Source of the DNA: Chlorobiota bacterium
GTDB lineage: Bacteria > Bacteroidota > Ignavibacteria > Kapaibacteriales > UBA961
Assembly: GCA_039810485.1 (NCBI GenBank)
Contig: JBDHXA010000005.1
Span: 1,192-65,191 of the forward strand
Direction: 5' to 3'
Length of the DNA: 64,000 bases
Shown here piece by piece: positions 20,876 through 59,302 of this stretch; the stretch's first letter is position 1, and each line of letters starts with the position of its first letter. The notes beneath the pieces were generated by a model. The model worked only from the letters and a program-made list of their open reading frames with translations. It made no database searches and was not told the origin of the DNA. The translations under genes were made by a program, and so were the position numbers.

Positions 20876-21068
20876 ATGAGCCCACTCCGAAAAGTCGTGT
20901 AATATTTCAAATCAAAGAAAACATGGTGAAAAAGTACAGTTTTTACTCGTTTTCAAGTGAAAAACGTCAAAAAACGACTTTTTTAGCTCTTGAAAGATAA
21001 GTTTTTTTGAAAAATAGCGAATCTTTTGTCTGCAATTTTTATGAAATATCTTTTCGGAGTGGGCTCAT
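20876..21068 (+). mobile_element. MITE-like non-autonomous element, copy 1 (193 bp, 19-bp perfect terminal inverted repeats ATGAGCCCACTCCGAAAAG)
   Basis: Left end ATGAGCCCACTCCGAAAAG at 20876. Right end CTTTTCGGAGTGGGCTCAT ends at 21068. No ORF inside. A second copy, ~87% identical and in inverted orientation, lies at 59111-59302. Confidence 0.7.
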
Positions 21069-21131
21069 GTATAATAAATATAAAAGTTATAGCAGAAATT
21101 AATTTTCTTGAAATATGTCTTATTAATATGT

Positions 21132-21158
21132 AAAGTCCATAGCCGGTTAACAGAACCG
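21132..21158 (+). terminator. Rho-independent terminator
   Basis: GCCGGTT-AACAG-AACCGGC hairpin followed by TTTTTTTT. Confidence 0.65.
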
Positions 21159-21240
21159 GCTTTTTTTTACTGATAAAAATTATTTGCCTCTTTCTCATTG
21201 CGTTCATTATAATATTTATAAATAACTTAGTGGTTGTTTC

Positions 21241-22719
21241 GTGAAATCTTATCGTATTCTTATACTCAATTTACTTGCTTTTACCGTATGCTTTGCCGCA
21301 TGGATGATAAATGGCGTTTTAGTAACGTTTTTAACCAATAACGGCATATTTACTTGGAATGCAGAGCAAATTGGATGGCTACTAGGGGTGCCGGTTTTAG
21401 TTGGTTCAATACTTCGGCTTCCAGTGGGTATGCTGACAGATAAGTTTGGCGGCAAATGGGTAATGACTGCAATTCTGCTTCTGAGCGCAATTCCTATGTA
21501 TCTTTTATCCATTGCTAATAGTTACAGCTCGTTTCTATTGCTAAGTTTTGGCTTTGGATTGTCTGGAAGTTCTTTTGCCGCGGGAGTTGCGTATGTGTCA
21601 TTATGGTTTTCAAAGGATAAACAAGGTACTGCACTAGGAGTATTCGGCGCTGGAAATGTTGGAGCTGCACTAACAACTCTTTTTGCTCCAAGCATATTAG
21701 GATGGCTTACGCACAATGGGGCCAATCTTAACGAATGGCGAACACTCCCAAAACTTTATGCTCTTTTACTAGTGCTAACTGCAATTGTATTTTTTGTTTT
21801 TTCAAAAAATAAAAAGCCTGATGTAATTCGTTCTTTTAAGCAGCGTTTTGATCCATTGAAACAAGTGCGCGTTTGGCGTTTTGGATTGTATTATTTTTTC
21901 GTTTTTGGTAGTTTTGTTGCCTTAACGCAATGGCTTATTCCTTATTATGTTAACGTATATTCTATGACAATTGTTGCCGCTGGCTTTATGACTACCGCAT
22001 TCAATTTGCCTGCCGGATTATTGCGAATTGTTGGAGGTGTTTTAGCTGACAAAATTGGAGCAAGAGTAGTTCTATATTGGGTGTTGGGAATATGCATTGT
22101 ATGTCTTTTATTTCTTTTTCCGCCAAGAGTTGAAATTCAAACGCCTGGGCAAGGAATTATGGCTGGCAAATCAGGTGTTGTGAAAAGTGTCGCAGAAAAT
22201 GAAATTGTTTTGACCGACCCTAATAATCCTAACCAAAACACTGCGTATCCATTGCAGCCAAAAGAAGGTCCAATTGAAATTCGTTTTGGAATTCATCATA
22301 ACCAAGAGGGATTTTTACCTTTGCCTTCTACTGTTACTTGGCATGAGTCGCAAGTAACAGAAGGTGAAAAAGTATCCAAAGGACAATTGTTGGCAAAGGG
22401 TATAACTCATATTTATTTCCAAGCAAATAAATGGATTTTTACAACTTTTGTATTTATCATTGGCATTATGATGGGCATTGGCGGCGCCGCTGTATTTAAA
22501 CATATTTCAAGTTATTATCCTGGTGATGTAGGAACAGTAGGTGGAATTGTAGGAGTTATTGGCGGTTTGGGCGGTTTTATCGATCCAATAATTTTTGGAT
22601 ATCTATTGAAATTTACTGGAGTATGGACTTCTTCATGGCTTTTCCTATTTGTTTTAGCAGCCATTAGTATGGTTTGGATGCGTCTTACTATCAAGCATAT
22701 TATAGTTGACAAAGGTTAA
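21241..22719 (+). CDS. narK: MFS nitrate/nitrite transporter with an unusual ~100-aa hydrophilic insertion
   Basis: 492 aa. Twelve-helix MFS layout; the N-terminal half is typical of the NarK/NNP family (GMLTDKFGGKWV). Adjacent to the nar operon. Residues ~295-400 form a non-hydrophobic insert between helices. Confidence 0.8.
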   Translation: MKSYRILILNLLAFTVCFAAWMINGVLVTFLTNNGIFTWNAEQIGWLLGVPVLVGSILRLPVGMLTDKFGGKWVMTAILLLSAIPMYLLSIANSYSSFLLLSFGFGLSGSSFAAGVAYVSLWFSKDKQGTALGVFGAGNVGAALTTLFAPSILGWLTHNGANLNEWRTLPKLYALLLVLTAIVFFVFSKNKKPDVIRSFKQRFDPLKQVRVWRFGLYYFFVFGSFVALTQWLIPYYVNVYSMTIVAAGFMTTAFNLPAGLLRIVGGVLADKIGARVVLYWVLGICIVCLLFLFPPRVEIQTPGQGIMAGKSGVVKSVAENEIVLTDPNNPNQNTAYPLQPKEGPIEIRFGIHHNQEGFLPLPSTVTWHESQVTEGEKVSKGQLLAKGITHIYFQANKWIFTTFVFIIGIMMGIGGAAVFKHISSYYPGDVGTVGGIVGVIGGLGGFIDPIIFGYLLKFTGVWTSSWLFLFVLAAISMVWMRLTIKHIIVDKG

Positions 22720-23619
22720 GATATAATAATGAATATGCGATTAAAACATGAACTATCGCTTCGCTGACATTTGAAATTACAAAAGAACATAAATGATTGT
22801 AAAATAATCAAATGGTAATTATTATAATATTGCAAAACAAGCAGTTGAAAACATAATAATAAGTGATGAAATGATTGTTAAAACTAACCTACTACCTGAT
22901 AACTCCACTTTGAAATTAGTTGAGATAATTTTTAATTACACAGATAGTTATCAAGGAACAATAATTGATAAAATGAAAATATAGAAATATTGTCAGTGGT
23001 AAATTCTTTTTTTATGAGCACCCCAAATTAAATTAGAAAACTTATTTGTATCCGAGACAAAATGTTTTTTACTTCGATTTAAAAATTTTATATCAGTCTC
23101 ATAATCAAAAGAATCAGATTGATAGTTTTAAGTGTGATGTTGTGAAGAGTAAATAGGTATTTTTAAAGTGTTCGACAGGATCGAAAAGGAAGTTGTATTG
23201 GTTGAAGACGACAAACACTAAATTATATAATTCCAACCCTTATTGATGAAAATAAAGGAAACGATTGCTTAAAATACATTGCAATACCTATTGCTGTAAA
23301 ATTCAACAATAGGATGGTGAAGATTTTTATGAAGTTGCAAGGCTTTTTCACAAAATAATAGTTTCAGATGTTTTAATGGAAATAATTAGGTAAATAGAGA
23401 AATAAAATATTGTGAAATAACAATTGCATGTTTGTAAAGTACTCATATTTATTAGTTGTTATAAGCACTGTAAGCTCAATTGTCGATATGCAACCTTTTT
23501 CCAATTTCCATCCCATTATTTCGCCAAACCCCGATATTAAAAATAATTCCCTTCGTTGAATTAGACAAAATTTTGGAAATTTATTTTTCATCGTGAGATT
23601 TGCACTCAAATGATGTTAT

Positions 23620-24663
23620 ATGAGACAGCAGCTAATTGAGACAATTCGAGATCTTTCGCCTGCCTACTTTGCAATGGTGATGGCTACTGGTGTAGTATCT
23701 AGTGCCTCGTTTTTTATGGAAATGTATGCAATATCGTATCCATTATTTTGGATAAATATTTTCCTCTATTTATCACTTTGTGTTGCAACTGCCTTAAGAA
23801 TTTTAATGTTCCGCTCTTATGTTGTGCAAGATTTATTGGATCATGTAAGAGGCATGGGTTTTTTTACTATTGTTGCTGCAACGTCATTATTAGGCACACA
23901 GTTTATTCTTCTCGAGGGAAACTATCATATTGCTAAGATTTTATGGTTTGTTGCCATATTATTTTGGATAGTTATCACTTATTCTATTTTTACAAATCTA
24001 ACTATCAAAAAAGACAAACCATCGTTTTCAGATGGAATAAATGGATCATGGCTGTTGGCGGTTGTTTCTACCCAAAGTTTGGCAGTATTAAGCTCTAAAC
24101 TTTCGATGCATTTTGTAACCTATAAGCTTGTGCTCAATTTTTTTGCATTTGCTTTATGGCTTTGGGGTGGAATGCTCTATATTTGGATGATTTCTTTGAT
24201 ATTTTACCGCTATACTTTTTTTAAATTTTCTCCAAGCGATTTGACTCCACCGTATTGGATTAACATGGGAGCAATGGCAATATCAACTTTAGCCGGTTCC
24301 TTATTGATAATCAATACGCCGAATGCTCCTTTTCTGTTTTCAACACTGGCATTTCTAAAAGGATTTACTATATTCTACTGGGTAACGGGCACTTGGTGGA
24401 TACCGATGCTTTTTATTCTTGCTTTTTGGCGACACATTTACAAAAAATTTCCATTGCACTACGATCCATTATATTGGGGTGCTGTATTTCCGTTGGGAAT
24501 GTATACTGCTTGTACATTTGAGATGGCAAAAGCAATGGATCTTGAATTTTTGCTGCCAATACCTAAATATTTTATCTATATTGCATTATCAGCATGGACT
24601 GCAACGTTTGTGGGATTTGTTGTAAATGTGATTAAGAAATTCGTGCCAATTGCAAAAGCATAG
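23620..24663 (+). CDS. TDT/TehA-family (SLAC1-like) anion transporter
   Basis: 347 aa polytopic membrane protein (~10 helices). N-terminal region resembles tellurite-resistance/C4-dicarboxylate transporter family proteins. Confidence 0.45.
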   Translation: MRQQLIETIRDLSPAYFAMVMATGVVSSASFFMEMYAISYPLFWINIFLYLSLCVATALRILMFRSYVVQDLLDHVRGMGFFTIVAATSLLGTQFILLEGNYHIAKILWFVAILFWIVITYSIFTNLTIKKDKPSFSDGINGSWLLAVVSTQSLAVLSSKLSMHFVTYKLVLNFFAFALWLWGGMLYIWMISLIFYRYTFFKFSPSDLTPPYWINMGAMAISTLAGSLLIINTPNAPFLFSTLAFLKGFTIFYWVTGTWWIPMLFILAFWRHIYKKFPLHYDPLYWGAVFPLGMYTACTFEMAKAMDLEFLLPIPKYFIYIALSAWTATFVGFVVNVIKKFVPIAKA

Positions 24664-24742
24664 TTATCCAATATTGTAAAATTTGTGGCAGTGTAATTCG
24701 TTACTATTAGCTATAATTACCTAAAATTTGTAAATAGTTGAA

Positions 24743-25726
24743 ATGCTTATAGATTCTTATGGCAGGGCGCATGATTATCTGCGCATCTCAATCACCGATA
24801 AATGCAACCTTCGCTGTTCATATTGTATTCCATACGATTTGCCGCATGGATTCTATGCCAACTCTCAACGCCTTACACCCGAAGAAATATACACAATTGC
24901 AAAAGTATTCGTTGGATTGGGAGTTAAAAAAATACGAATAACAGGCGGAGAGCCGTTGGTGCGCAAAGAATGCAGGAGAATACTTCAGATTCTTTCCGAA
25001 TTGCCGGTCGAAATTGTTCTTTCAAGCAATGGAGTTCTGATAGATGAATTTCTTGATGATTTAATAAAGCATCGCATCAGTTCTGTAAATATCAGTTTAG
25101 ATTCGCTGAAAGAAGAAACTTTCAATGCTATTACTCGAAGAAATCAGCAAAAAAGGGTGCTGGCAAATATTAATTTGTTGCTTAAACATAATTTTCATGT
25201 TAAAATTAACACGGTTGCAATGCGAGGAGTTAATGATCATGAATTTGTAGATTTCGTAGCGATGACTCAAAACTCACCGCTCGACATTCGCTTTATTGAG
25301 TATATGCCTTTTATCGGAAATGGCTGGAGCAAGGAAAAAGTTATAACGAAAAATGAAATACTGGATATTATAAGCGATTCATTTTCTTATGATAAAATTG
25401 AAGATGCCGCGCACAGCACTTCAAAAAATTTCAGAGTGAAAAACGGGTCTGGAACTTTCGGAATTATAACAACAATGAGCGAGCCATTCTGTGGAGACTG
25501 CAATAGGTTGCGATTAACAGCCGATGGCAAAATAAAAAACTGCTTATTCGGAAAGGAAGAAATAGATCTGATGACAGCTTTGAGAAACGGCGAAGATATA
25601 ATATCTCTGATTTATCAATCAGTTAAAAATAAATATGCTGTTATGGGAGGCCAGTTCGATAAAGGATATCAATTAATAGAAACAGAAGATATTGTAAATC
25701 GCAGCATGATTGGAATAGGCGGATAA
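24743..25726 (+). CDS. moaA: GTP 3',8-cyclase (radical-SAM Moco biosynthesis protein A)
   Basis: 327 aa. Radical-SAM CNLRCSYC motif and C-terminal second Cys cluster CGDCNRLRLTADGKIKNC. Confidence 0.9.
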   Translation: MLIDSYGRAHDYLRISITDKCNLRCSYCIPYDLPHGFYANSQRLTPEEIYTIAKVFVGLGVKKIRITGGEPLVRKECRRILQILSELPVEIVLSSNGVLIDEFLDDLIKHRISSVNISLDSLKEETFNAITRRNQQKRVLANINLLLKHNFHVKINTVAMRGVNDHEFVDFVAMTQNSPLDIRFIEYMPFIGNGWSKEKVITKNEILDIISDSFSYDKIEDAAHSTSKNFRVKNGSGTFGIITTMSEPFCGDCNRLRLTADGKIKNCLFGKEEIDLMTALRNGEDIISLIYQSVKNKYAVMGGQFDKGYQLIETEDIVNRSMIGIGG

Positions 25727-25728
25727 AA

Positions 25729-26913
25729 ATGTTAACAATGCCAAGCGTAGCTGAAGCAAAAAAAATATTGTCGAGCAATATCATTACATTGCCCGATGAA
25801 GAATTGCCTATAATTGGAGCTCTCGGAAGAAACGTAAGTCAAGACATTTATGCGCCAATAGATGTGCCCTCATTCGATAATTCTGCAATGGATGGTTTTG
25901 CGCTTAATTATCAACAAGGAAATTCGAGCTATAAAATTATATCGCAAATTCAAGCTGGGGACAGTGCGCTTTATCGTCTTAATACCGATGAAACAGCTCG
26001 GATTTTTACTGGTGCGCCAATGCCGCAAGGCGCAGATACGGTCATTCAACAAGAATTAGTTGAAATTCATAATGATGAAATTTCCTTTGATGAAAATAAT
26101 ATTTTCAAAGGTGTCAATGTGCGTTTACGCGGCTCTCAATGCAAACAAGGCGATAAAATTCTACTGAGCGGAAGTAAAATTACTCCAGGTTCTGTAGCTT
26201 TGTTGAGTTCGGTTGGCATGAGAAAAATACGGGTGCATCAACAACCCAAAGTTGCACTTATAGTAACCGGAAACGAATTAATCGAGCCCGGAAAGACATT
26301 GCAACACGGTCAAATTTATAATTCTAATGAACCGGCTGTTCTATCATATCTTGCTTTATTGGGTATAACCAATACAATTTCGGTGCAAGTGCGAGATAAT
26401 CTTTTTGATGTGCAATATCAACTATCAAGAGCTTTGCAACAATGCGATGTGCTAATTATAACAGGCGGGATTTCCGTAGGTGAATACGACTTTGTATATC
26501 AAGCGCTTATCAATGAAAATGTGAAACCCCTATTTTACAAAGTAAAGCAAAAGCCCGGAAAACCGCTTTTTATCGGAATGAAAGAAAATAAACACATTTT
26601 TGCTTTGCCGGGTAATCCTGCCGCTGTCCTCAGTTGTATTAATCAATATGTAAAACCTTGTTTGCTCGGAATGCGCGGTGAAAAGGAGTCATTTCGCCCT
26701 TCTGTATTATTGCCTTTATCTCATAATTACACAAAAAAAACACCTTTGACAAATATCTTAAAGGCAAAAGTTTCACATAGTGAAGCAACAATTCTTAGCG
26801 GGCAAGATTCCTTTAATTTACAATCGTTTAGCGAGGTAAACGCTTTCGTCGTTCTCTACGAGGAAGATGCATCGAAGCAAAAGGGTGAAAAAGTAGAAGT
26901 ATATTATTTATAA
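25729..26913 (+). CDS. moeA: Molybdopterin molybdenumtransferase
   Basis: 394 aa. MoeA N-terminal and MoCF-binding domain (ITGGISVGEYDFV, ALPGNPAA). Confidence 0.9.
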   Translation: MLTMPSVAEAKKILSSNIITLPDEELPIIGALGRNVSQDIYAPIDVPSFDNSAMDGFALNYQQGNSSYKIISQIQAGDSALYRLNTDETARIFTGAPMPQGADTVIQQELVEIHNDEISFDENNIFKGVNVRLRGSQCKQGDKILLSGSKITPGSVALLSSVGMRKIRVHQQPKVALIVTGNELIEPGKTLQHGQIYNSNEPAVLSYLALLGITNTISVQVRDNLFDVQYQLSRALQQCDVLIITGGISVGEYDFVYQALINENVKPLFYKVKQKPGKPLFIGMKENKHIFALPGNPAAVLSCINQYVKPCLLGMRGEKESFRPSVLLPLSHNYTKKTPLTNILKAKVSHSEATILSGQDSFNLQSFSEVNAFVVLYEEDASKQKGEKVEVYYL

Positions 26914-26921
26914 TGTAAACG

Positions 26922-27656
26922 ATGGAACATCATCTGCAAATATTGCTGTTTATTTTGATGCCGCTTGCAGCTTTTCTCTATTCTTCTGTTGGGCATGGCG
27001 GCGCCAGCAGCTATATTGTGTTATTAACGTTATTCGGCTTTTTGCCAGCAGAAGTACGCCCCGCCGCATTGGTGTTAAATATTGGCGTTTCAGCCATCTC
27101 ATTTCTTACCTTCCATCGAAAATGCGATTTTCCTTACAAGTTTTTTTTAATTCTGATATTATTTTCAATTCCGGCAGCTTACTTGGGCGGGACATTTACC
27201 CTCGATGCAAAAGTATATCAAAAAATTCTTGGGCTGCTGCTTCTATTGCCGATTGCCAGATTGTTTAATCTTTTCAGAGTTAAAGAGGGCAAGCCCGTTC
27301 CTAAAAATTTTCTTCTGATAGCTTTTCTATCATTTTCTATTGGATTTATCTCGGGAATAATAGGAATAGGAGGCGGCATTTTACTGTCGCCCATATTAAT
27401 ATTCTTTGGTTGGGCAGATTTAAAACAAACTGCAGCTATAAGCGGTTTGTTTATATTCCTAAATTCTATTGCAGGTTTGCTGGGAACAGGAGCAACCAAT
27501 TTTTCATGGCTGCCACATTTTGAATTAATTATTCCGCTTACATTAGCAGGCGGAATTGCGGGCGGTTATTTAGGAGCAAATAAATATTCTCCGCCGGCTA
27601 TGAAATATGCGCTTGCAATAGTACTGTCTATAGCATCAGTAAAATTTCTGATTTAA
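26922..27656 (+). CDS. TauE/SafE-family (DUF81) anion exporter-like membrane protein embedded in the Moco operon
   Basis: 244 aa, ~8 helices, with duplicated Gly-rich motifs (VGHGGASSYIV, IGIGGGILLSP) typical of PF01925. Confidence 0.65.
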   Translation: MEHHLQILLFILMPLAAFLYSSVGHGGASSYIVLLTLFGFLPAEVRPAALVLNIGVSAISFLTFHRKCDFPYKFFLILILFSIPAAYLGGTFTLDAKVYQKILGLLLLLPIARLFNLFRVKEGKPVPKNFLLIAFLSFSIGFISGIIGIGGGILLSPILIFFGWADLKQTAAISGLFIFLNSIAGLLGTGATNFSWLPHFELIIPLTLAGGIAGGYLGANKYSPPAMKYALAIVLSIASVKFLI

Positions 27657-28479: not shown

Positions 28480-28485
28480 TAAGAT

Positions 28486-29586
28486 ATGATGCAACGCTTT
28501 GAACGTCAGATAAATTTGCGCGGCTTCGGTGTTGAAGGTCAGCGGCGGCTCATGCAATCTTCTGCTTTGATTGTAGGAGTCGGAGGTCTTGGATGTCCGG
28601 CCTTATTATATTTGGCTGCAGCTGGAGTCAAAAGAATTGGTATAGCAGATGGCGATATCGTCAGCATGTCTAATCTTAACAGACAAGTGTTGTTTGGGAT
28701 AGGCGATAATCATAAAAAAAAGACAGAAACAGCAGCCATATTTATCCGCGAAAAATATGATGATGTTCAAATTGATGAATACTCATTTTATTTGGATGTG
28801 AGCAATTCGCTCGATATTATCTCGCAATACGATATTGTGCTTGATTGCACGGATAATTTTTCAGTGAGGTATATGGTAAATGATGCTTGCTTATTGCTGA
28901 ATAAGCCGGTTATTTATGGCGCTATTTACGAGTATGAAGGACAAGTGAGCGTTTTTAATATTCAAAATACTGACGGTTGTTCATATAATTATCGAGATTT
29001 GTTTCCTGATCCTCCTGACAGTTCACAAATTCCTAACTGCAATGAAACTGGAGTTCTTGGAGTTCTTCCTGGTATAATAGGCACGATGCAGGCAGCAGAG
29101 ACAATCAAAATTTTAAGCGGCATTGGAACTTCTCTTTCGGGGAAAGTATTGTACTATAATATCGAATATCAGCAGTTTTATGATATGGATATTATCAAGT
29201 CAGCAATTGGTTCGTGCAAAGCGCCGCAAAACATGGATGAGTTTTGCAATCATGATTATTCTCTCTCATGCTCTGTTACAAAATCTATTGACTGGAATGA
29301 AGCAAAAAAAATCTACAACGAGAAGCCAGACCAAACCATCTATATAGATGTGAGAGAATTGGATGAATTTCCCAAAGTTTCAGCAATTGAATGTCTCATA
29401 TTGCCTATGTCATTGCTTCCTGATGAATGTTATCGTTTATCGGAAGCATCTAATCTCTTAATATTTTGCAGAAGCGGTATAAGAAGCGAAAAAGCCGCTC
29501 AAATGCTTCAATCAAAATTCCCACAGAAAAGCATCTATTCAATAAAAGGCGGAGTTCTGAGCAAACTATCACCGATATATTCATAA
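28486..29586 (+). CDS. moeB: Molybdopterin-synthase adenylyltransferase (ThiF/MoeB E1-like) fused to a C-terminal rhodanese domain
   Basis: 366 aa. Nucleotide-binding GVGGLGCPALLYLAAAGV, a CxxC pair, and a C-terminal rhodanese active-site loop (FCRSGIRSEKAAQ). Confidence 0.85.
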   Translation: MMQRFERQINLRGFGVEGQRRLMQSSALIVGVGGLGCPALLYLAAAGVKRIGIADGDIVSMSNLNRQVLFGIGDNHKKKTETAAIFIREKYDDVQIDEYSFYLDVSNSLDIISQYDIVLDCTDNFSVRYMVNDACLLLNKPVIYGAIYEYEGQVSVFNIQNTDGCSYNYRDLFPDPPDSSQIPNCNETGVLGVLPGIIGTMQAAETIKILSGIGTSLSGKVLYYNIEYQQFYDMDIIKSAIGSCKAPQNMDEFCNHDYSLSCSVTKSIDWNEAKKIYNEKPDQTIYIDVRELDEFPKVSAIECLILPMSLLPDECYRLSEASNLLIFCRSGIRSEKAAQMLQSKFPQKSIYSIKGGVLSKLSPIYS

Positions 29587-29591
29587 TAAAA

Positions 29592-30032
29592 ATGCAACAC
29601 AAACCAAAAAATATATTTATACAAGGACCAATTACTGCTCAAAAAATAGCTGACAGCATTTCAGGGCATAGCACAAAAACAGATATTGGAGCACATAGCA
29701 TTTTTCTAGGTCAAGTGCGCGCCGATAGTAATGAGCAAGGAACTGTTGAGGCAATTGAATACACTGCATACGAAGAAATGGCGCTTGAAAGAGCGCATGA
29801 AATTCGCGAAGAAATCTTTGTAAGATTTGAATTGAATTGCATGCATATTTACCATAGCTTGGGAAAAGTTAAGGCAGGCGAAATTTCTCTCTTTGTTTTC
29901 ATTTCATCCAAGCATCGCAAAGCGGCTATTAAAGCGTGCGAGGAAGTCGTCGAGCGAATTAAAAAAACGTTGCCAATTTGGGGTAAAGAGATTATGCAAG
30001 GTAATAAATCTACGTGGAAAGAGAACAACTGA
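29592..30032 (+). CDS. moaE: Molybdopterin synthase catalytic subunit
   Basis: The ORF-track start at 29466 overlaps moeB. The internal Met at 29592 (MQHKPKNIFIQGPI…) gives a ~146-aa MoaE-sized product immediately after the moeB stop. Confidence 0.8.
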   Translation: MQHKPKNIFIQGPITAQKIADSISGHSTKTDIGAHSIFLGQVRADSNEQGTVEAIEYTAYEEMALERAHEIREEIFVRFELNCMHIYHSLGKVKAGEISLFVFISSKHRKAAIKACEEVVERIKKTLPIWGKEIMQGNKSTWKENN

Positions 30033-30640
30033 TTTCGAAGCAATGTTTGAAAAATTTGGCACAAAACAAACAATAACGCATGCAAGCAAACGAAAGATTG
30101 AACGTTTTTTTATTTCCGATGATGCTTTAAAATAAAATATCTGCTCAATTTGTAGCAATGATTGATTGAATAATTATTGAAAATATCGTAATCGGGCTAT
30201 TTTCTAAAAACCACAGAGCGCAAAGTCCATTCATTTTACAGCCATCCATTCAAATTCAAAACATCAAAGTTTGCCGTCTATTCTGACATCAAAATTGGAA
30301 GTTTTAGCTATACAGACACATCCAACAGACGAGATTTACTAAGATTCCTTCACAAAAATCTCAATCTAATAAGTAATTGTAAAAACTTACAAAATAAATG
30401 AATATTATTTCTTACTATGCAGCCAATTGTAATTTGTAAAATAATTTACCGATGTTTGACTCTCATATTTTCATTTAAGGATTGTAAAAATCGAATTAAA
30501 ACTGCATAAATAAATTGAATTGTTAGATCGAAAAATCTTATTTCAATTGCATCTTTTCTATAAAAAACATCATTTCTTATTTATAGAATTTTACCAGCCG
30601 ATCTATGAGTAAAGTTAAATATATTGTTAAAGTAAAGAAT

Positions 30641-30775
30641 ATATCCGACTATAAACAAAGTATAAGCGTTGCTCGGCATTATTTTAATATCCGACAAAAT
30701 AAAGCGTATAATAATTACTTGCAAAGATATAATAGCCGACAAAAGTAATCATGTTTTATATTTATAATATCTGAC
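30641..30775. promoter_or_regulatory. Four direct repeats of ATATCCGAC / ATATCCGAC / ATAGCCGAC / ATATCTGAC, spaced 46, 45 and 35 bp, in the 980-bp region upstream of the bcr-like operon
   Basis: Read directly at 30641, 30687, 30732 and 30767. Reverse complement of the GTCNGATAT repeats upstream of the nar operon. Confidence 0.45.
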
Positions 30776-31011
30776 TAGAAAAAGAGTATTTGCAAATCGT
30801 GTAAATTTATGAAAAACAAGGTGAAAGCAAAATATAAGTTAATGTTTGATTGCCTGTAAAAAATTGGAAAAATGAACTTTTTTCAATATCTTTATTTTAC
30901 TTTTTACACAAAATCATCGTTGTATAAGCAGAACTGAATAAAATATTGTGCTCTTTGAAATTCTCAATTGAGCAAAAAAAAACAAAAATGTGATACTTTT
31001 TTTCAAAAACA

Positions 31012-48796: not shown

Positions 48797-48797
48797 A

Positions 48798-49817: not shown

Positions 49818-49831
49818 ATTGGAACACTACA

Positions 49832-50179: not shown

Positions 50180-50199
50180 AATTATTTTTAAACTGCAAT

Positions 50200-50802: not shown

Positions 50803-50804
50803 TA

Positions 50805-52312: not shown

Positions 52313-52323
52313 AATGAAAAACC

Positions 52324-55116
52324 ATGAGAAAGATAAATTTAAAAATCAACAATAAACCCTTTACGTTTCTGGCAGAAGATTCAGAAATGCTATCTCATGT
52401 AATACGTGAGCGTGCAGGGCTTACAGGAACTAAAGTAGGATGCAGTCAAGGTAGTTGCGGTGCGTGTACGGTCATTGCAGATGGTGAACCTGTGCTGAGT
52501 TGCATCACGCCTGCATTCCGATTTGATAATGCTGAAATACAAACAGTAGAAGGTCTTGCAGAAAATGGAACTCCTGATTTATTACAGGAATTATTTGTAC
52601 AAAAAGGTGCTATCCAATGTGGTTTTTGTACTCCCGGAATGGTATTGACTGCTAAAGATTTTGTGGATAAGAACCCCGATGCATCTACGCAAGATATTAA
52701 AGAGGCTTTATCAGGAAACCTTTGCCGTTGCACCGGTTACAAGAAAATTATTGAAGCCGTAACAGAATATACCGAACTTAAAAAACAAGGAGTTGAACAT
52801 TTACCGCCTGTTGAAGAAAACAGTAAAATTATCGGTATTGGCAGACCCTATATTGAAGCAGAAAAGAAGGTATTGGGCAAAGCACTTTATGCAGATGATT
52901 TGCAATTTAGAAATCTACTTTACTGCAAATTTTTAAGAAGTACACACGCTCATGCACTCATCGAAAACATTGATATTTCAGAAGCAAAGGCAATGGAAGG
53001 TGTAGTTTATGTTGCGATAGGAAATGATTTGCCGGAGAAGTTTGGTGTGTTGCCGGTATCTCATGATGAAACCGCTATGGCTATTGAAAAGACACGCTAT
53101 TTTGGAGAAATAGTGGCAGCCGTAGCAGCAGAAAGTTTTGAAATTGCCGAAGCTGCTTGCAAGAAAATAAAAGTAAAATACCAACCTCTCAGAACCTATT
53201 TCAACATTGAAGATTCAATTCATGATGTGGGAGATAATGCTAAGATTCATGAGCATTGCAAGTTCAACAATAACATTCATAAAAAGGCAGAATTGCGTTT
53301 TGGAAATCAAGAAGAAGCTTTTAAAAATTCGGATATTATTTCTGAAATGGAATTTGATGTAGAAGGCGTTTCACATGCTTTTACAGAACCCCATTCAGCA
53401 ACAGCCTATTGGGACGAAAATGGATTAACGATTCATACGGCTACACAAGTTCCACATTATTTGCATAGAGCCTTAGCCAAAGTAATGCAAGTGCCTTTGA
53501 GTAGAGTGCGTGTTATTAAACCCTATGTGGGTGGCGGTTTTGGTGGTAAGAGTGATCCTTTTCCTCACGAAATGATTATTTCTCACATTGCCCGAAAAAC
53601 AGGCAGACCGGTTCGTTCTACCTTTACAAGAGAAGAAGTTTTTTTGAGTAACCATGGAAGGCATCCTTCTAAGTTCAAAATGAAAATCGGTGCTGACAGC
53701 AATGGTATGTTGAAAGTGTTAGATGCTGATGTAGCTATTGATGGCGGTGCTTATGGCAGTTTTGGAGTAGTTACTTCCTACTACAATGGCGTGCTATTGC
53801 AAGCTCCTTATGAGATAAAAGATTTTGGTTTTAAAACCTATCGTGTTTATACCAACAAACCTCAATGCGGTGCAATGCGTGGGCATGGTGCGGTGAATAC
53901 ACGCTTTGCAGCCGAGTCGTTGATAGATGATATTGCACATCGCTTGAACATAGACCCTTGCGAGATACGGTTAAAAAATTTCTACAAAGAAAATGTGATT
54001 ACCATCGGGCATTTCAGAATCACATCCAACGGCAGTAGAATGGCGTTGCAGCAAGTGATGGAGCGTTCCGGTTGGAAAGAAAAAAGAGGAAATCTTCCTG
54101 CAGGGCGAGGCATTGGTGTGGGTTGTGGCTTCTTTATAAGCGGCAGTGCATTGCCTATTATTTGGAATGAATATCCGCAAACTGTGGTGCATTTGAAATT
54201 GGATTTTGATGGTCGGATTTTGATTTCTTCCGGTGCAAGTGATATTGGTCAAGGAAGCGATACGATGCTGGCAATGGTTGTGGCTGAAACAATGGGAATT
54301 GATATGCAAAAAGTGTTTGTGTTGGCTGCCGATACTTTACTCACACCTGTTGATTTGGGAAGCTATTCCAGTCGGGTAACTTTTATGTGTGGCAATGCAG
54401 CAAAGCAAGCAGCAGAGAAACTAAGAGCAGAAATTTTAGAAGCTGTCTCCAAGCGAAAAGAAATGGCAATAGAAGAATTATACATCGAAAATAGCCGTGT
54501 TCGTTCTAATGATAATAGTGTTAATCTGGAATGGTTAGAAGCGGTTGATATGGCAACGGCTCATCGAGGTGCATTGACGGTAAGTGGCAATTATATTTCA
54601 CCCAAATTAGGAGGAGATTTCAAAGGCTCTGGAGCGGGTTTAAGTCCTTCCTACAGCTTTGGTGCTTGCATTGCAGAAGTGAATGTAAACAAACAAACCG
54701 GACAAGTGGAAGTGCTAAATGTTTGGGGTGCGCATGACTGCGGAAAAGCCCTGAATCCATTGGCAGTGGAAGGACAATTAGAAGGTTCATGGCACATGGG
54801 AATAGGGCAGGCATTGAGCGAAGAAATGAAATATTATGATGGACTTCTGCTTAATAATAATTTCTGCGATTATAAAATTCCTACCACTTTAGACACACCC
54901 GAAATTGATACTAATATCATTGAGTCAGGCGACCCTGAAGGACCTTATGGAGCAAAAGAATGTGGTGAAGGTGCGCTGCATCCGGTCATTCCGGCTATTG
55001 CTAATGCTATCTTTAATGCTTGTGGAGTGAGGATAACAAAATTGCCAATTAAAGCAGATGAAGTGTTAGCACAGATAAAATCTAATATGAAAACACAAAT
55101 GAATAAGGTTGATTAA
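52324..55116 (+). CDS. Xanthine-dehydrogenase-family molybdoenzyme, fused [2Fe-2S] (gamma-like) + molybdopterin-binding (alpha-like) subunit; 4-hydroxybenzoyl-CoA reductase HcrC-HcrA-like
   Basis: 930 aa. N-terminal ~160 aa carry two 2Fe-2S motifs (GCSQGSCGACTV, CGFCTPGM, CRCTGY). The remainder is an aldehyde-oxidase/XDH large-subunit region with the Moco motif GGGFGGK. Confidence 0.85.
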   Translation: MRKINLKINNKPFTFLAEDSEMLSHVIRERAGLTGTKVGCSQGSCGACTVIADGEPVLSCITPAFRFDNAEIQTVEGLAENGTPDLLQELFVQKGAIQCGFCTPGMVLTAKDFVDKNPDASTQDIKEALSGNLCRCTGYKKIIEAVTEYTELKKQGVEHLPPVEENSKIIGIGRPYIEAEKKVLGKALYADDLQFRNLLYCKFLRSTHAHALIENIDISEAKAMEGVVYVAIGNDLPEKFGVLPVSHDETAMAIEKTRYFGEIVAAVAAESFEIAEAACKKIKVKYQPLRTYFNIEDSIHDVGDNAKIHEHCKFNNNIHKKAELRFGNQEEAFKNSDIISEMEFDVEGVSHAFTEPHSATAYWDENGLTIHTATQVPHYLHRALAKVMQVPLSRVRVIKPYVGGGFGGKSDPFPHEMIISHIARKTGRPVRSTFTREEVFLSNHGRHPSKFKMKIGADSNGMLKVLDADVAIDGGAYGSFGVVTSYYNGVLLQAPYEIKDFGFKTYRVYTNKPQCGAMRGHGAVNTRFAAESLIDDIAHRLNIDPCEIRLKNFYKENVITIGHFRITSNGSRMALQQVMERSGWKEKRGNLPAGRGIGVGCGFFISGSALPIIWNEYPQTVVHLKLDFDGRILISSGASDIGQGSDTMLAMVVAETMGIDMQKVFVLAADTLLTPVDLGSYSSRVTFMCGNAAKQAAEKLRAEILEAVSKRKEMAIEELYIENSRVRSNDNSVNLEWLEAVDMATAHRGALTVSGNYISPKLGGDFKGSGAGLSPSYSFGACIAEVNVNKQTGQVEVLNVWGAHDCGKALNPLAVEGQLEGSWHMGIGQALSEEMKYYDGLLLNNNFCDYKIPTTLDTPEIDTNIIESGDPEGPYGAKECGEGALHPVIPAIANAIFNACGVRITKLPIKADEVLAQIKSNMKTQMNKVD

Positions 55117-56065
55117 AATTAAAATTATGGAAACATTGCAAGCAACATATATCAAAGTGAAGTCGGTAGCAGAAGCTATTGAAAAAATAAATGAGATACC
55201 CAATACCATTTTTGTGGCAGGTGGTACCGATGTGTTTGTCAATAAGCAGCAAGGAAATATTGATGCAGACTGTTATCTTGATATTTCCGGAATAGACGAA
55301 TTGAAAACTGTAACTATTCACTCTGACAGATTAGAAATTGGTGCGACTGTAACTTTAGAAAAGATTTCAAAATCAAAAGATGTAGAAAAATATTTCCCGA
55401 CATTAATAGAAGCGGCATTGGCAGTAGCAACTCCTGTCATCCGTAAGACTGCAACTATTGGAGGCAATATTTTGTGCGAAAATCGTTGTTTCTATTATAA
55501 TCAAAGCGACTGGTGGCGTGAGTCTGTTGGGCATTGCCTGAAATGCAACGGAGATATTTGTATCGCATCCGGAGGAAAGAAAAACTGCTTTTCAAAATTA
55601 GTAAGTGATACGGCACCCGTTTTAATAGCTTATGGTGCTTCCGTAAATTTAATTAACGCAAGTGGAGAAAGGAAAGTGCCTTTAGAAAGCTTATACACCG
55701 GTGATGGCGTGGACTCTGTCAATTTAGATAAAAGGACTTTAGTAAAATCTATCGAGATTCCTTTTAGCGATAAGAAAGTAATTTTTAAAAAACTCAGACC
55801 CAGAAAAACATTAGATTTTACTTCATTGACAACAGCAGTTTCCCACAATGCCAATGATAATTTGAGAATTGTTGTTGGTGGTGTTGATCCAAAGCCAATA
55901 ATTGTTGAAGGCAATTTGAAAGAAATAGCAGTAGATACATTAGTAACAACAGCAGTGAAAAAACCTAAGGCAGTAGAGAATGATTTTTATTCACGCACTT
56001 ACAGAAAAGAAATGATTAGAGTATTTGTGGAAGAAAGCCTTTTTCTATTAAAAATTAAAAATTAA
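55109..56065 (+). CDS. FAD-binding subunit of the XDH-family enzyme with a Cys-rich insertion (HcrB-like)
   Basis: 318 aa. CO-dehydrogenase-flavoprotein-like FAD domain (FVAGGTDVFV). Insertion CENRCFYYNQSDWWRESVGHCLKCNGDIC has five Cys, reminiscent of the extra [4Fe-4S] loop of the 4-hydroxybenzoyl-CoA reductase beta subunit. The start may instead be Met at 55127. Confidence 0.8.
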   Translation: MIKIKIMETLQATYIKVKSVAEAIEKINEIPNTIFVAGGTDVFVNKQQGNIDADCYLDISGIDELKTVTIHSDRLEIGATVTLEKISKSKDVEKYFPTLIEAALAVATPVIRKTATIGGNILCENRCFYYNQSDWWRESVGHCLKCNGDICIASGGKKNCFSKLVSDTAPVLIAYGASVNLINASGERKVPLESLYTGDGVDSVNLDKRTLVKSIEIPFSDKKVIFKKLRPRKTLDFTSLTTAVSHNANDNLRIVVGGVDPKPIIVEGNLKEIAVDTLVTTAVKKPKAVENDFYSRTYRKEMIRVFVEESLFLLKIKN

Positions 56066-56075
56066 AAATTAAAAA
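56047..56075. repeat. Short tandem heptamer repeat (AAAAATT)x4 at the 3' end of the flavoprotein gene
   Basis: Read directly: aaaattaaaaattaaaaattaaaaatta. Confidence 0.5.
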
Positions 56076-56122
56076 TTACGAATTAAGAATTGGAAATTTT
56101 AAAAAAATAAAAACTAATAATT

Positions 56123-56632
56123 ATGAACAAAGTAGTAGAAGTATTAACTCAAGAACACGAAAACATTAAACGAGTAATTGACAATACACACAAGCTTGTT
56201 GCAGATATACTTTCAGGAAATGCAGAATTAAATGTAATGCATGAGCGTATTGAATTTTTTAGAAAATATGCAGATGGTTATCATCATCACAAAGAAGAAG
56301 AAGTGTTGTTTCCTGAAATGATAAAAAGGAATGAAATACTTGAATTTGGCGTTATCCATGAGATGCTTCAAAACCACGAGGACTTTAGAGAGATGCTGGC
56401 AGAGTTAGAAGAATTAGTAAATGACGGAGATGCTGAAGGTGCAAAGAAAAAATTTGAAGCTTATGCAGAAGCCTTATTGGAGCATATTGCTGTAGAAGAC
56501 GAAGAAGTATTTCAAATAGCTGAAACCATTATGAGCGAAGACGAATTGCTTACTGTTTTATATCGTTTTGAAGACTGCGACAGAGAGTTGGGAATGGATG
56601 AAAAAAAGGAGTGGGAGGAAAAGATAGAGTAA
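56123..56632 (+). CDS. Hemerythrin-like domain protein
   Basis: 169 aa with HENIKR, YHHHKEEE, HEMLQNHEDFRE and EHIAVEDEE metal-ligand-like motifs. Confidence 0.55.
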   Translation: MNKVVEVLTQEHENIKRVIDNTHKLVADILSGNAELNVMHERIEFFRKYADGYHHHKEEEVLFPEMIKRNEILEFGVIHEMLQNHEDFREMLAELEELVNDGDAEGAKKKFEAYAEALLEHIAVEDEEVFQIAETIMSEDELLTVLYRFEDCDRELGMDEKKEWEEKIE

Positions 56633-56689
56633 AAAAGATCGTTAAATGTTAAAGAAAATAGTATTGCTACAATCTAACCTTATTATCTT

Positions 56690-57598
56690 GTGATTAATAT
56701 AACTCATAAAAGCCCAACACTACGTAAAGCAACAGCGCAAGCGATTGTGAAAGTTAGTAAGGAAGAAACTATCCAAGCGATTGTTGAAAAGCGCGTGCCA
56801 AAGGGCGATGTTTTTGAAATGGCAAAGACTGCTGGTCTGTTCGCCGTTAAGCGCACCAGCGATATAATTCCCGATTGTCATCCATTGCCAATCGAATTTA
56901 CTGCTGTACGCTATGAAATCAAAGAATTAGAATTGCATATAGAGATGGAAGTGCACACTATTTACAAAACAGGCGTTGAAGTCGAGGCAATGCATGGCGC
57001 TTCTGTTGTAGCTCTCACTATATATGATATGCTCAAACCCATTGACAAAGGCATTGAAATAAACTCCATAAAGCTAATAAAAAAATCAGGCGGAAAATCC
57101 GATTTTATCGACAAATTCAGGAAAGATCTGAAAGCTGCAGTAATCGTATGCTCTGATAGTATTTCTGCAGGGCAAAAAGAAGATAAAGCAGGCAGGGCAA
57201 TTATAGAAAAGCTCAATAGTTGCGATATAGCAGTTTCGGATTATATCGTAATACCGGACGATTTGGATGAAATTAAAAATAGAGTTATATCTCTGGCGCC
57301 TCAGAACGATATTATTATCCTTACCGGAGGAACTGGTCTTTCGCCGCGCGATATGACGCCTGAAGCACTGAAACCGCTGTTAGACAGAGAAATACCCGGG
57401 GTGATGGAAGCAGCAAGAAATTATGGACAAGAACGAACTCCTTATTCCATGTTGTCAAGAGGAGTTGCAGGGCTGATAGGAAATACTTTAACGCTCGCTT
57501 TGCCCGGATCAACAAAAGGCGCACAAGAGTCAATGAATGCTTTATTTCCGGCAATTTTGCATATTTTTAAAGTTATAAACGGGAGACGACACGAATAA
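56690..57598 (+). CDS. Bifunctional MoaC (cyclic pyranopterin monophosphate synthase) / MogA-MoaB-like protein
   Basis: 302 aa. N-terminal MoaC-like half. C-terminal MoCF-binding domain with TGGTG motif ([13 protein letters not shown]). Confidence 0.8.
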
Positions 57599-57640
57599 TC
57601 TATTTTCTTAGTTATTGAACCACATTAGTTAAACATAAAA

Positions 57641-58024
57641 ATGATTGCAACGAATTTTGGCGAGAATTACCTTTTATATGAAAATATGGAAATTTGGGAA
57701 GTAAAATCATTCCCTGAATTTTTTAAAGCTCATGAAAATTTATTAGAAATATTTGAATCTGAATACGGTTTTCCTTTTGATAAAATTGATGCGCAAAAAA
57801 ACTTTGACGAACCCGATATTATGATTATTTCAAAATTATTGGATTATTTCGGCGATAAACATTTCTTTGTGTTTTCATATAATGATGCAAATCATAATGA
57901 GTTGAAAAAATTACAAGATCAAAAAATAATTAACTTCGGAATGGATATTTATGTTATTCATCCTTCAAGAATTTATGTTTTAGAGATGGATAAGACAAAA
58001 GATATGCGCATGTATGACCGCTAA
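57641..58024 (+). CDS. Hypothetical protein
   Basis: 127 aa ORF with no recognisable motif. Codon usage is similar to its neighbours. Confidence 0.35.
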   Translation: MIATNFGENYLLYENMEIWEVKSFPEFFKAHENLLEIFESEYGFPFDKIDAQKNFDEPDIMIISKLLDYFGDKHFFVFSYNDANHNELKKLQDQKIINFGMDIYVIHPSRIYVLEMDKTKDMRMYDR

Positions 58025-58039
58025 TTCAGTGGGGTTGCT

Positions 58040-58441
58040 ATGTCTATGCTAGATATTTTTCAAAAAAAAAATCTACGGTATTATCGCCTTGTCATTTATG
58101 CTGTTGTATTGACTTATATTTGGGTGCAGTATAAATTCAGTTCTGACGACTTGACCTACGATAATGGACAAATAAAAATAGTTGGACAGCACGTAAACGG
58201 AAAAGATGAAGGAACTTGGACTTGGTTCTATGAAAATGGGAATAAGCGAATGCAAGGAGATTTTCTGCATGGCAAGCGTCAAGGCGTTTGGACTATTTGG
58301 GATTCAAACGGCATAAAACTGACGGAGAGCACATATCATAACGATAAATTAAACGGCAAGTTTATTCGCTGGGATGCGCAAGGAAATAAAATCAGCGAAG
58401 AAATATATCAAGACGATAAATTAGCCGGTTCGAAAAATTAA
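58040..58441 (+). CDS. MORN-variant repeat (YwqK-like) protein
   Basis: 133 aa. N-terminal helix, then repeated G-x-W / NG-K repeats (GTWTWFYENGNK, GVWTIWDSNGIK, GKFIRWDAQGNK). Confidence 0.5.
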   Translation: MSMLDIFQKKNLRYYRLVIYAVVLTYIWVQYKFSSDDLTYDNGQIKIVGQHVNGKDEGTWTWFYENGNKRMQGDFLHGKRQGVWTIWDSNGIKLTESTYHNDKLNGKFIRWDAQGNKISEEIYQDDKLAGSKN

Positions 58442-58770
58442 GTAAATAAGAACAAAGAACAATTCGATTGTAATATATCTGAAATTGACAAGCATGAATA
58501 AATGATGCAATAGGTTGAAATATAAACTATGACACGATAAGCATTAAAGAGCAGCAATTGAACTCTATGACTGAAGAATTCATGTTGTCTACCTATATAC
58601 ACCAGTTATGCGTCACCCTATCCTACCACTCGTATAACCATCCACATTAAAATAATTTGACAAAACCTTCTTAAATGATTTGTCCGATAAAAATTATATC
58701 GTAATATTGCATTATTAAAATTAAAGAGATTGTCGGAGCAACTAAAACAGACCATTTTACACATAAATAA

Positions 58771-59058
58771 AATCAAATCGCTACAATAGCAAAAGCGTTG
58801 GGACACCCTACAATGATTGCAATTATTGAGTATTTGATGAAAGTAAATGCTTGTATTTGTGGCTAAATTGTAAACGAACTACCATTAGCACAGCCAACCG
58901 TTTCGCAACATTTAAAAGAACTCAAAAACGTGGGACTGATAAAGGGTAACATTGAAGGCAATGCAATTTGTTACTGCATTGATGAAAAAACTTTCAATGT
59001 ACTGAAAGAATATTTTTCAAAAATCATCTTAACCGTAACCAATCAAAAATGCTTTTAA
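58771..59058 (+). pseudogene. ArsR/SmtB-family transcriptional regulator, disrupted (no ATG at the conserved N-terminus; in-frame TAA at 58864-58866 inside the CxC metal-site motif)
   Basis: The frame translates to …[53 protein letters not shown]…, which matches the ArsR HTH signature [11 protein letters not shown]. Confidence 0.55.
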
Positions 59059-59110
59059 AAGTTATATACTTTCCATAATCGCAATATTGCAATAAAACAG
59101 AATAAATCAA

Positions 59111-59302
59111 AGAGCACACTCCGAAAAGGTGTTTTATAAAAATTGCAGACGAAAGATTCGCTGTTTTTCAAAAAACATATCTTTTAAGAGCTATAAAAGT
59201 CGCTTTTTTGCCGTTTTTCTCTTATAAAATGAGTAAAAACTGTACTTTTTCACCATATTTTCTTTGATTTGAAATATATCCGACTTTTCGGAGTGGGCTC
59301 AT
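59111..59302 (-). mobile_element. MITE-like element, copy 2 (192 bp; inverted relative to copy 1; one terminal inverted repeat is degenerate)
   Basis: AGAGCACACTCCGAAAAG at 59111-59128 and CTTTTCGGAGTGGGCTCAT at 59284-59302. The interior is the reverse complement of copy 1 at ~87% identity. Confidence 0.7.

Follow-up and report, generated by a model that had tools for sequence, protein, structure and literature searches.

Two inverted repeats of just under 200 bp lie on either side of a 38-kb region for nitrate transport, Moco biosynthesis, and aromatic degradation in a Chlorobiota bacterium, which raises the question whether they delimit this region as a single mobile or invertible unit or ended up there independently. 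We addressed this in the window, i.e., the whole analyzed stretch of 64,000 nucleotides (contig JBDHXA010000005.1, positions 1,192 to 65,191). MITEs are short transposable elements without coding capacity, reduced to the ends that their transposase recognises. Very probably, the two repeats inserted separately and belong to a single MITE subfamily of 189 bp, whose ends (GAGCCCACTCCGAAAAG[T], 17-18 nt) are those of IS1182-like ISs. The intervening 38 kb is ordinary chromosomal DNA, lying between two insertions by chance.

A preliminary description of this DNA had placed two inverted copies of ~193 bp at 20876-21068 and 59111-59302. Both are real, and their borders could be refined to 189 bp each (Table 1). 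Copy 1 had also been given a perfect 19-bp terminal repeat; the pairing is indeed perfect, but the core is 17 nt long (GAGCCCACTCCGAAAAG), since the 2 additional nucleotides (AT) fall in the target-site duplication ATGTAT. For copy 2, the reverse-complement orientation and the one degenerate end, with a single mismatch, stand as described, whereas its identity to copy 1 is ~90% rather than 87% (89.5% over 189 bp each in inverted orientation vs 60% in direct orientation). The longest exact run common to both copies is an interior block of 26 nt. Allowing up to three mismatches, the 17-mer has four matches in the window, at 20878 and 59112 on the + strand and at 21050 and 59284 on the - strand, against a mean of 0.08 in shuffled sequence.

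Neither copy has coding capacity, in line with the preliminary description: none of their ORFs exceeds 46 aa or is meaningful, and no transposase gene is present. Copy 1 folds into a long hairpin (-44.2 kcal/mol as DNA, z = -8.5). With Rfam, the whole window yielded no family at either copy at the gathering threshold, and copy 1 with its surroundings (20800-21250) gave only chance-level, sub-threshold matches at a permissive one.

Table 1. Features at the two repeat copies and in their immediate surroundings (window coordinates).
Feature	Position	Strand	Description
Left target-site duplication of copy 1	20872-20877		ATGTAT, identical to 21067-21072; fits the 6-bp family consensus
MITE copy 1	20878-21066	+	189 bp; 17-nt terminal inverted repeats 20878-20894 / 21050-21066, perfectly paired
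Right target-site duplication of copy 1	21067-21072		ATGTAT
Terminator-like hairpin, then T-run	21141-21171	+	Between copy 1 and narK; context, not part of the element
ArsR-family pseudogene	58771-59058	+	Pfam HTH_5, E = 2.5e-10; in-frame TAA at 58864-58866
Flank of copy 2	59106-59111		ATCAAA; 4/6 identity with 59301-59306
MITE copy 2	59112-59300	-	189 bp; inverted relative to copy 1; 89.5% identical
Ends of copy 2	59112-59128; 59284-59300		First with one mismatch (GAGCACAC...); second perfect
Flank of copy 2	59301-59306		ATAAAT; matches the family target consensus
AhpD-like (peroxidase-related enzyme) 3' fragment	59304-59558	+	TIGR01926, E = 2.3e-11; cut at the edge of copy 2

The repeats had been called MITE-like mobile DNA, a reading that would weaken if no IS with matching ends existed anywhere; such ISs, full-length and encoding a transposase, do occur in other genomes. 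Scanning one genome per species with the 17-mer, we found the same ends in at least 100 stretches, nearly all in Bacteroidota MAGs; as ~70 chance matches are expected for a 17-mer in a collection of this size, some single-end matches outside Bacteroidota may be noise. Among the matches listed, the MAGs often carry the ends on several contigs, and often at contig ends. Likewise among the matches listed, ~45 short paired elements have these ends; they measure 130-270 bp (mode ~141 bp) and fall into many subfamilies, whose interiors are wholly different while the ends are conserved.

The full-length ISs with these ends (loci L004, L052, L096, L112-L116, and L117-L120 in other genomes) are 1830-1866 bp long and contain a single transposase ORF of 532-566 aa. 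Each transposase matches Pfam DUF772 and, weakly, DDE_Tnp_1 or DDE_Tnp_1_6, and D169, D365, and E470 are invariant among them, forming a DDE triad. Their best NCBIfam match is the IS1182 model NF033551 (E = 1e-29 to 1e-30, positions 37-487 of 488), at 101-106 bits. Since this is well under the 270-bit cutoff of that model, we only use the name 'IS1182-like'. The parent ISs agree with the IS1182 family in having one ORF, the DDE triad, terminal inverted repeats, and a length of 1830-1866 bp (the ISfinder range for the family being ~1.3-1.95 kb). An identical 558-aa transposase is found within the same ends in at least five distinct contexts, and a second IS of 1845 bp is flanked by an exact AAAATT duplication. 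A fourth full-length candidate (L080:1948-3737) was rejected, as it consists of two unrelated ends around a CorA-like gene.

More than 2,713 homologs of the transposase were found, most of them on lone contigs of 1.85-2.3 kb, and the sources label the protein merely 'transposase' or 'hypothetical protein'. The plasmid collection holds no named IS that matches it; the nearest plasmid-borne relatives there are archaeal and Microvirga proteins only, with at most 34% identity. Neither was the end sequence found in the literature searched. The parent ISs form a large, apparently unnamed clade, mostly from Bacteroidota, that is distantly IS1182-like.

Mobility is also written in the flanks. Of 46 elements from the whole family, 21 are flanked by exactly matching 6-bp sequences and 10 more agree at five of the six positions, against 0.9% exact agreement in permuted flank pairs and nothing above 4/6 in shifted controls. 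(The IS copies of P0200, in which the flanks of L112 and L114 are reciprocally swapped, were not used as evidence on duplications, and their mismatch was attributed to assembler chimerism over the 1.9-kb repeat.) The family thus makes a 6-bp duplication at the consensus target A-A/T-N-N-T/A-T. Because the ends match those of ISs and the duplications occur far above chance, we infer that the repeats are MITEs that an IS1182-like transposase mobilises in trans. The exact duplication around copy 1, being intact and its own, indicates that this copy inserted alone and has not recombined with copy 2 since. At copy 2, ATAAAT is probably the surviving half of the duplication, and the mismatched flanks would fit the loss of the original flank through an adjacent deletion.

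Further copies, together with an autonomous parent, are likely to be present in the source genome. The independent k-mer (Logan) assembly of the source sample, SRR19427095, breaks 28-35 nt inside the element ends, whereas the four ends in the window have exact words of at most 23 nt in common; the two window copies alone cannot explain these breaks, which implies additional ones. Within the window itself there is neither an autonomous IS nor a third copy. In a comparison with 100 loci, 46 short elements, and 5 full-length ISs, the window element resembles these at its ~20-nt ends and along an AT-rich subterminal stretch, but its interior has no further match, and nothing indicates that it derived by deletion from any of the ISs compared. 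In the metagenome collection, a conserved 21-mer from the interior matched only twice, both times by chance and away from any element ends.

The two copies landed in rather different surroundings. Copy 1 sits within the nitrate cluster, with narGHJI-hemerythrin on one side and narK on the other. Owing to the terminator-like hairpin at 21141-21171, it can be placed more precisely between the stop codon of the hemerythrin-like gene (20838) and the terminator, and it is probably neutral there. Around copy 2, insertional damage had been suggested for both an ArsR and an AhpD-like gene. This holds for the latter, which is cut exactly at the element edge: the fragment spans only positions 106-176 of the 178 in TIGR01926, and upstream of copy 2, on its other side, the ~105 codons for the N-terminus are missing. 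It does not hold for the ArsR pseudogene, which carries a nonsense codon and stops 53 bp short of the element. A histidine kinase gene also adjoins copy 2.

From these observations, the following course of events can be proposed. A transposase from an autonomous copy elsewhere in the genome would bind both MITE ends and insert the element at A-A/T-N-N-T/A-T sites with cuts staggered by 6 bp, the repair of which would yield the 6-bp duplication. Copy 1 would have entered the 3' untranslated region of the hemerythrin-like gene in the nar cluster, upstream of its terminator and of the narK upstream region. Copy 2, older or more decayed, would have inserted into the AhpD-like gene downstream of the ArsR regulator. 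A later deletion ending at the element end may then have removed the 5' half of the AhpD-like gene along with one copy of the duplication, after which the ArsR gene, by then useless, could have picked up its nonsense codon. Both the adjacent deletion and this order of events at copy 2 are reconstructed from the present state of the locus.

The opposite orientation of the copies had been taken for the arrangement of a composite or invertible segment, but the intact duplication of copy 1, the differing outer flanks, and the split nar cluster speak against this. In a composite transposon, the MITE pair would serve as the two ends and would move narK, the Moco genes, and the aromatic-degradation block together as one unit of 38 kb. 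The region is indeed bracketed by two related elements whose outer ends are intact, and MITE-flanked composite units are known, such as the integron units reported in Acinetobacter and Enterobacter. Such an origin is nevertheless extremely improbable here, as copy 1 inserted alone, the outer flanks of the pair (ATGTAT and ATAAAT) differ at both unconstrained central positions and agree only at the four constrained by the consensus, the copies are merely 89.5% identical, and copy 1 leaves narGHJI outside the bracket and narK inside. The closest relatives (73-76% protein identity) have a rearranged gene order, and their homologs of the hemerythrin-like gene offer no orthologous intergenic site at which to look for an empty site. 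They contain the nar, narK, and Moco genes without any element ends. A synteny comparison had been proposed to see whether the bracketed region is present or absent as a unit; what varies between window and relatives is an internal ~26-kb aromatic-degradation block, not the 38-kb bracket. Alternatively, homologous or site-specific recombination between the copies could have flipped the 38 kb, either in the past or as an ongoing switch. These are inverted repeats of 189 bp with 89.5% identity, and the Moco operon of the relatives runs opposite to narK-SLAC1-moaA, which means that the region has undergone inversions during evolution. The rearrangement breakpoints, however, coincide with neither element, and any odd number of inversions through the copies would have parted the ATGTAT flanks of copy 1, which are intact. 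Moreover, the annotated ORFs inside the bracket and on both sides of it are all on the + strand, the sole exception being the pair of ABC-transporter genes found ~16 kb upstream of copy 1 (2600-4975), and the GC skew is positive throughout, both copies included; both patterns run unbroken over the two junctions. A longest exact run of 26 nt within 10% divergence is, by the established threshold, a poor substrate for RecA, and the 48 window ORFs scanned include no recombinase, integrase, invertase, or transposase domains. We thus regard an invertible segment as very improbable.

It is also unlikely, to a high degree, that the repeats are not mobile DNA at all and were instead selected by the host for a structural or regulatory role, whether as REP-like hairpins, as stabilisers or terminators of RNA, or as a small RNA. 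The very stable long hairpin (z = -8.5), the location of copy 1 in a 3' untranslated region ahead of a terminator, and the 26-nt interior block identical in both copies would suit such a role. On the other hand, the ends are common to transposase-bearing ISs, the 6-bp duplications are far above chance, interiors differ wholly between subfamilies that conserve the ends, no Rfam family matches, and copy 2 sits in decayed DNA, where it truncates a gene. A regulatory effect of copy 1 may still exist as a secondary one. One could go further and suppose that the MITE pair flips the 38 kb at low frequency in a subpopulation, or that the RNA hairpin of copy 1 has been co-opted to tune nar transcript stability upstream of narK, and, separately, that the parent ISs are a distinct, undescribed Bacteroidota group whose 17-nt ends are unusually conserved and whose 6-bp palindromic target is strict. 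This combined proposal is a long shot, although a true flip or hairpin tuning would mean that a selfish element has joined the regulation of anaerobic respiration.

Two separate MITE insertions, by contrast with these alternatives, leave the nitrate/Moco/aromatic-degradation region neither delimited nor mobilised by the repeats. What does vary as a unit is the ~26-kb benzoyl-CoA-type block, which is inserted within the Moco operon. Up to now, both the 189-bp repeats and the IS group with the same ends have been unannotated. Yet such repeats break metagenome assemblies at predictable places and can pass for island boundaries, of which the present locus is an example. For masking or cataloguing the family in Bacteroidota MAGs, a simple signature is available in its ends GAGCCCACTCCGAAAAGT together with the 6-bp A-A/T-N-N-T/A-T target.

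Several known systems resemble the elements described here. MITECca01 of Cardinium, derived from the IS982-family ISCca4 (PMC9769881), is likewise a Bacteroidota MITE that contributes to pseudogenisation, and it is maintained by intact parental IS copies. Its parent belongs to IS982, and parent and MITE occur in the same genome, whereas the ISs whose ends match our elements are known from other genomes. Porphyromonas gingivalis, a member of the same phylum, harbors the MITEs MITEPgRS/MITE464, MITE239, and BrickBuilt, which stem from the IS5 family (PMC4596501). They are also short, AT-rich, and non-coding, have only the terminal repeats in common with full-length ISs while the interiors are unrelated, and in both cases the ends begin with GAG(A/C)C. 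Differences lie in their 12-nt repeats (GAGACCTTTGCA-like), their IS5 parent, and their variable duplications, as well as in the internal minisatellite of BrickBuilt, which is absent here.

MITEs derived from IS1182 elements have a precedent in the ISMac2-derived ones (160-169 bp) of Methanosarcina acetivorans (PMC3852290). For these, duplications of 4 or 0 bp are listed (PMC3852290), unlike the 6 bp at A-A/T-N-N-T/A-T found here. Our family also departs from IS1182 in its transposase score (~105 vs 270 bits) and in its mostly Bacteroidota hosts. Still, the parents match the IS1182 pattern of a ~1.85-kb element that is bounded by terminal inverted repeats and whose one DDE ORF has an N-terminal DUF772, and the short non-coding derivatives (140-270 bp), with their IS ends and short target duplications, are much like IS1182-family MITEs.

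Two repeats lie in inverted orientation where the preliminary description had placed them, and they align inverted and over their full length (89.5% identity, against 60% on the same strand). Each copy of the element proper measures 189 bp, and the longest exact run common to both is 26 nt. The terminal 17-mer, GAGCCCACTCCGAAAAG, occurs with up to three mismatches at four sites in the window, where shuffles predict 0.08, and these sites are the ends of the two copies. The element folds as DNA into a long hairpin (-44.2 kcal/mol, z = -8.5); no meaningful ORF was found within it and no Rfam match, even when copy 1 was also scanned permissively.

To delimit the element, one genome per species was scanned with the 17-mer, yielding at least 100 loci, and boundaries were set by joining the matches into inverted pairs and then aligning their flanks. 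The conserved element thereby starts at GAGCCC, not at ATGAGCCC, and is bordered by a 6-bp direct repeat. This duplication is exact (6/6) in 21 of the 46 paired elements and 5/6 in a further 10, whereas permuted left and right flank pairs gave 0.9% exact matches and flanks shifted by 6 bp gave 4/6 at most. The exact duplications define the target consensus A-A/T-N-N-T/A-T. Copy 1 has such an exact duplication, ATGTAT (20872-20877 and 21067-21072), while the flanks of copy 2, ATCAAA and ATAAAT, match at 4/6 positions. The 19-bp terminal repeat described earlier is hence a genuine inverted repeat given too long, as two of its bases belong to the near-palindromic ATGTAT duplication.

Among the matches listed, nearly all 17-mer loci are in Bacteroidota MAGs (Bacteroidales, Prolixibacteraceae including Maribellus, Mariniphaga, and Draconibacterium, Saprospiraceae, Balneolaceae, Chitinophagales, and others), frequently on several contigs per MAG and with the 17-mer close to a contig end. 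In most loci the end match reaches 20-22 nt. Since about 70 chance 17-mer matches are expected in 596 Gb, matches to a single end that stand alone in other phyla could be noise. Element ends are likewise present in some MAGs outside Bacteroidota, namely L084 (Treponema sp.), L092 (Chlorobiota), L010 (Latescibacterota), L054 (Lentisphaeria), and L085 (Anaerolinea); the explanation is either transfer of the family across phyla or mis-binning of the contigs concerned. Chance is excluded for the Treponema MAG, where a single contig contains three paired short elements. The family motif is also found on two viral contigs. On one, classed viral (IMGVR_UViG_3300012931_000090, L111:1562-1670), it forms a 109-bp MITE whose 17-nt ends are perfect and whose TTATAT duplication is exact, so the family may also reach phage or prophage DNA.

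About 45 of the paired elements among the matches listed span 130-270 bp, most commonly about 141 bp. A further three (L004, L052, and L096) span 1830-1866 bp and contain one ORF of 532-566 aa each. In Pfam, their protein shows a DUF772 domain and matches DDE_Tnp_1 or DDE_Tnp_1_6 weakly; D169, D365, and E470 are invariant in seven members (motifs RMDSKL, DGAY, and RNNVE). Among NCBIfam models, that of the IS1182 family matches best (E = 1e-29 to 1e-30, positions 37-487 of 488), with the IS5 and ISNCY models far behind. Because the score stays well under the 270-bit cutoff, the parents appear to form a distant IS1182-like clade that has not been described. More than 2,713 transposase homologues were found at E <= 1e-10, chiefly on lone 1.85-2.3-kb contigs, in keeping with a repeat that assemblers fail to place; where annotated at source, they are called only "transposase" or "hypothetical protein". 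In sequenced plasmids the group was not found, the sole matches being archaeal and Microvirga transposases at <=34% identity. One and the same 558-aa protein, enclosed by family ends in an IS of 1865 bp, recurs in five or more genomic contexts, and a different IS (1845 bp) is flanked by an exact duplication, AAAATT. For the identical 1865-bp IS at L112:1335-3199 and L114:1138-3002 (also L113 and L116), in different metagenome assemblies, the 6-bp flanks are reciprocally swapped (ATATTT...ACTATT in L112, ACTATT...ATATTT in L114); assembler chimerism across the 1.9-kb repeat is the most likely cause, genuine recombination among the IS copies being less likely.

When clustered without their 17-nt cores, the short elements fall into many subfamilies defined by their interiors, the largest (n = 12) being spread over several MAGs. 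In this clustering, copies 1 and 2 form a separate subfamily with no other members. Compared with the other short elements and five full-length ISs, the window element is alike only over about 20 nt and an AT-rich subterminal stretch, and an interior 21-mer gave just two chance matches in the metagenome collection. As for copy number in the source, the window is part of an NCBI contig of 65,279 bp, and its DNA is also contained in an independent Logan assembly of run SRR19427095, whose contig boundaries lie at 20905 (stop), 21039 (start), and 59146 (stop), i.e., 28-35 nt within the element ends. Exact words common to the four ends reach 23 nt at most, too short to branch a k = 31 graph such as Logan uses. 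Contigs nevertheless break inside the ends, and thus more copies with identical ends probably exist in this sample.

Features around the two MITE copies (window numbering)
Feature	Position	Strand	Remarks
Cytochrome c	12667-13530	+	nitrate cluster, upstream of narG
narG	13552-17175	+	
narH, narJ		+	between narG and narI
narI	19386-20111	+	
Hemerythrin-like gene	20170-20838	+	directly upstream of copy 1
17-mer site	20878	+	copy 1 end
17-mer site	21050	-	copy 1 end
Terminator-like hairpin	21141-21161 plus T-run		between copy 1 and narK
narK	21241-22719	+	MFS nitrate transporter
MoaE	29466-30032	+	before block; directly before MoaC/MoCF in relatives
AT-rich non-coding stretch, ~980 bp	30033-31011		start of block, before its genes
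Second hemerythrin-like gene	56123-56632	+	between block and MoaC/MoCF
MoaC/MoCF	56690-57598	+	after block and second hemerythrin-like gene
ArsR-type HTH reading frame	58771-59058	+	Pfam HTH_5, E = 2.5e-10; in-frame TAA at 58864; upstream of copy 2
17-mer site	59112	+	copy 2 end, one mismatch
17-mer site	59284	-	copy 2 end

Judged by gene order, copy 1 occupies the hemerythrin-like gene's 3' untranslated region, within the nitrate-respiration cluster and not at an island edge. The two hemerythrin-domain genes accompany the nitrate reductase and Moco genes, and the 222-aa hemerythrin protein (865 homologues at E <= 1e-20) adjoins nar/Moco genes in hundreds of Bacteroidota contigs. This conservation suggests a function devoted to nitrate respiration and not yet characterised, perhaps sensing of, or protection against, NO or O2. 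The cluster is otherwise tightly packed, but a gap of about 900 bp (22720-23619) with no ORF of at least 90 aa separates narK from the gene for the SLAC1-type anion channel, compared to a spacing of about 50-70 bp in relatives; this gap may contain a decayed gene or a regulatory region.

The inverted arrangement had been taken to indicate that the copies made the roughly 38 kb between them a composite or invertible segment. This is not supported. Copy 1 has its own exact duplication and therefore inserted alone; as an inversion through both copies would have parted its still matching flanks, no odd number of such inversions has occurred since. The outer flanks of the bracketed segment, ATGTAT and ATAAAT, are alike only at the four positions that the target consensus constrains. 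All ORFs annotated from 5156 to the window end are on the + strand; only two ABC-transporter genes at 2600-4975, some 16 kb before copy 1, differ. In 2-kb bins, GC skew does not reverse at either junction and is positive throughout except at 6-8 kb (about -0.015), well outside the segment. None of the 48 window ORFs scanned has a recombinase, integrase, or transposase domain, and with 10% divergence and no exact run above 26 nt the copies are poorly suited to homologous recombination. Rare flipping is at most a remote possibility.

The closest relatives found (73-76% protein identity; e.g., GCA_009612915.1) point the same way: the nar and Moco genes occur there, no element end lies within 16 kb of them, and the relatives' gene order differs in several ways, with breakpoints elsewhere than at the copies. 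Most clearly, the relatives' contiguous operon TauE-MobA-ThiS-ThiF-MoaE-MoaC/MoCF-129aa-MORN is parted in the window between MoaE and MoaC by a block of about 26 kb (30033-56122). What varies therefore lies inside the bracketed segment and has nothing to do with the repeats; neither repeats nor mobile-element genes were seen at the edges of the block. This block places genes for anaerobic aromatic (benzoyl-CoA-type) degradation inside a Moco biosynthesis operon: benzoyl-CoA-reductase-like and 2-hydroxyacyl-CoA-dehydratase-like subunits, a CoA ligase, a thiolase, enoyl-CoA hydratases, a 2-oxoacid:ferredoxin oxidoreductase, XdhC, and a xanthine-dehydrogenase-family molybdoenzyme.

At copy 2, the suggested insertional damage holds for the AhpD-like gene and not for the ArsR gene. 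The AhpD-like gene is truncated at copy 2: the ORF fragment right after it covers only positions 106-176 of 178 of the peroxidase-related model TIGR01926. The absent ~105 codons are not found across copy 2, where the ArsR stop codon is only 53 bp away. These missing codons and the mismatched flanks fit a history in which copy 2 inserted into the AhpD-like gene and a later deletion removed DNA exactly up to the end of copy 2. Transposase-mediated adjacent deletion or recombination with another copy could have been the source of this loss, and the orphaned ArsR regulator would then have decayed.

The MITE reading is borne out: parent ISs with matching ends are identified, the target duplication is defined at 6 bp, and the range of hosts is wide. 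Functionally the repeats are textbook MITEs. The main value of recognizing them lies in annotation and in guarding against reading such repeats as island boundaries. The end sequence was not found in the searchable literature; related systems are described, with IS1182-derived MITEs in Methanosarcina (PMC3852290) and, among Bacteroidota, a MITE from an IS982 parent in Cardinium (PMC9769881) and MITEs from IS5-family parents in Porphyromonas gingivalis. Like the window pair, the latter have only their ends in common with the parent IS (PMC4596501), and such ends-only likeness is the usual MITE picture.
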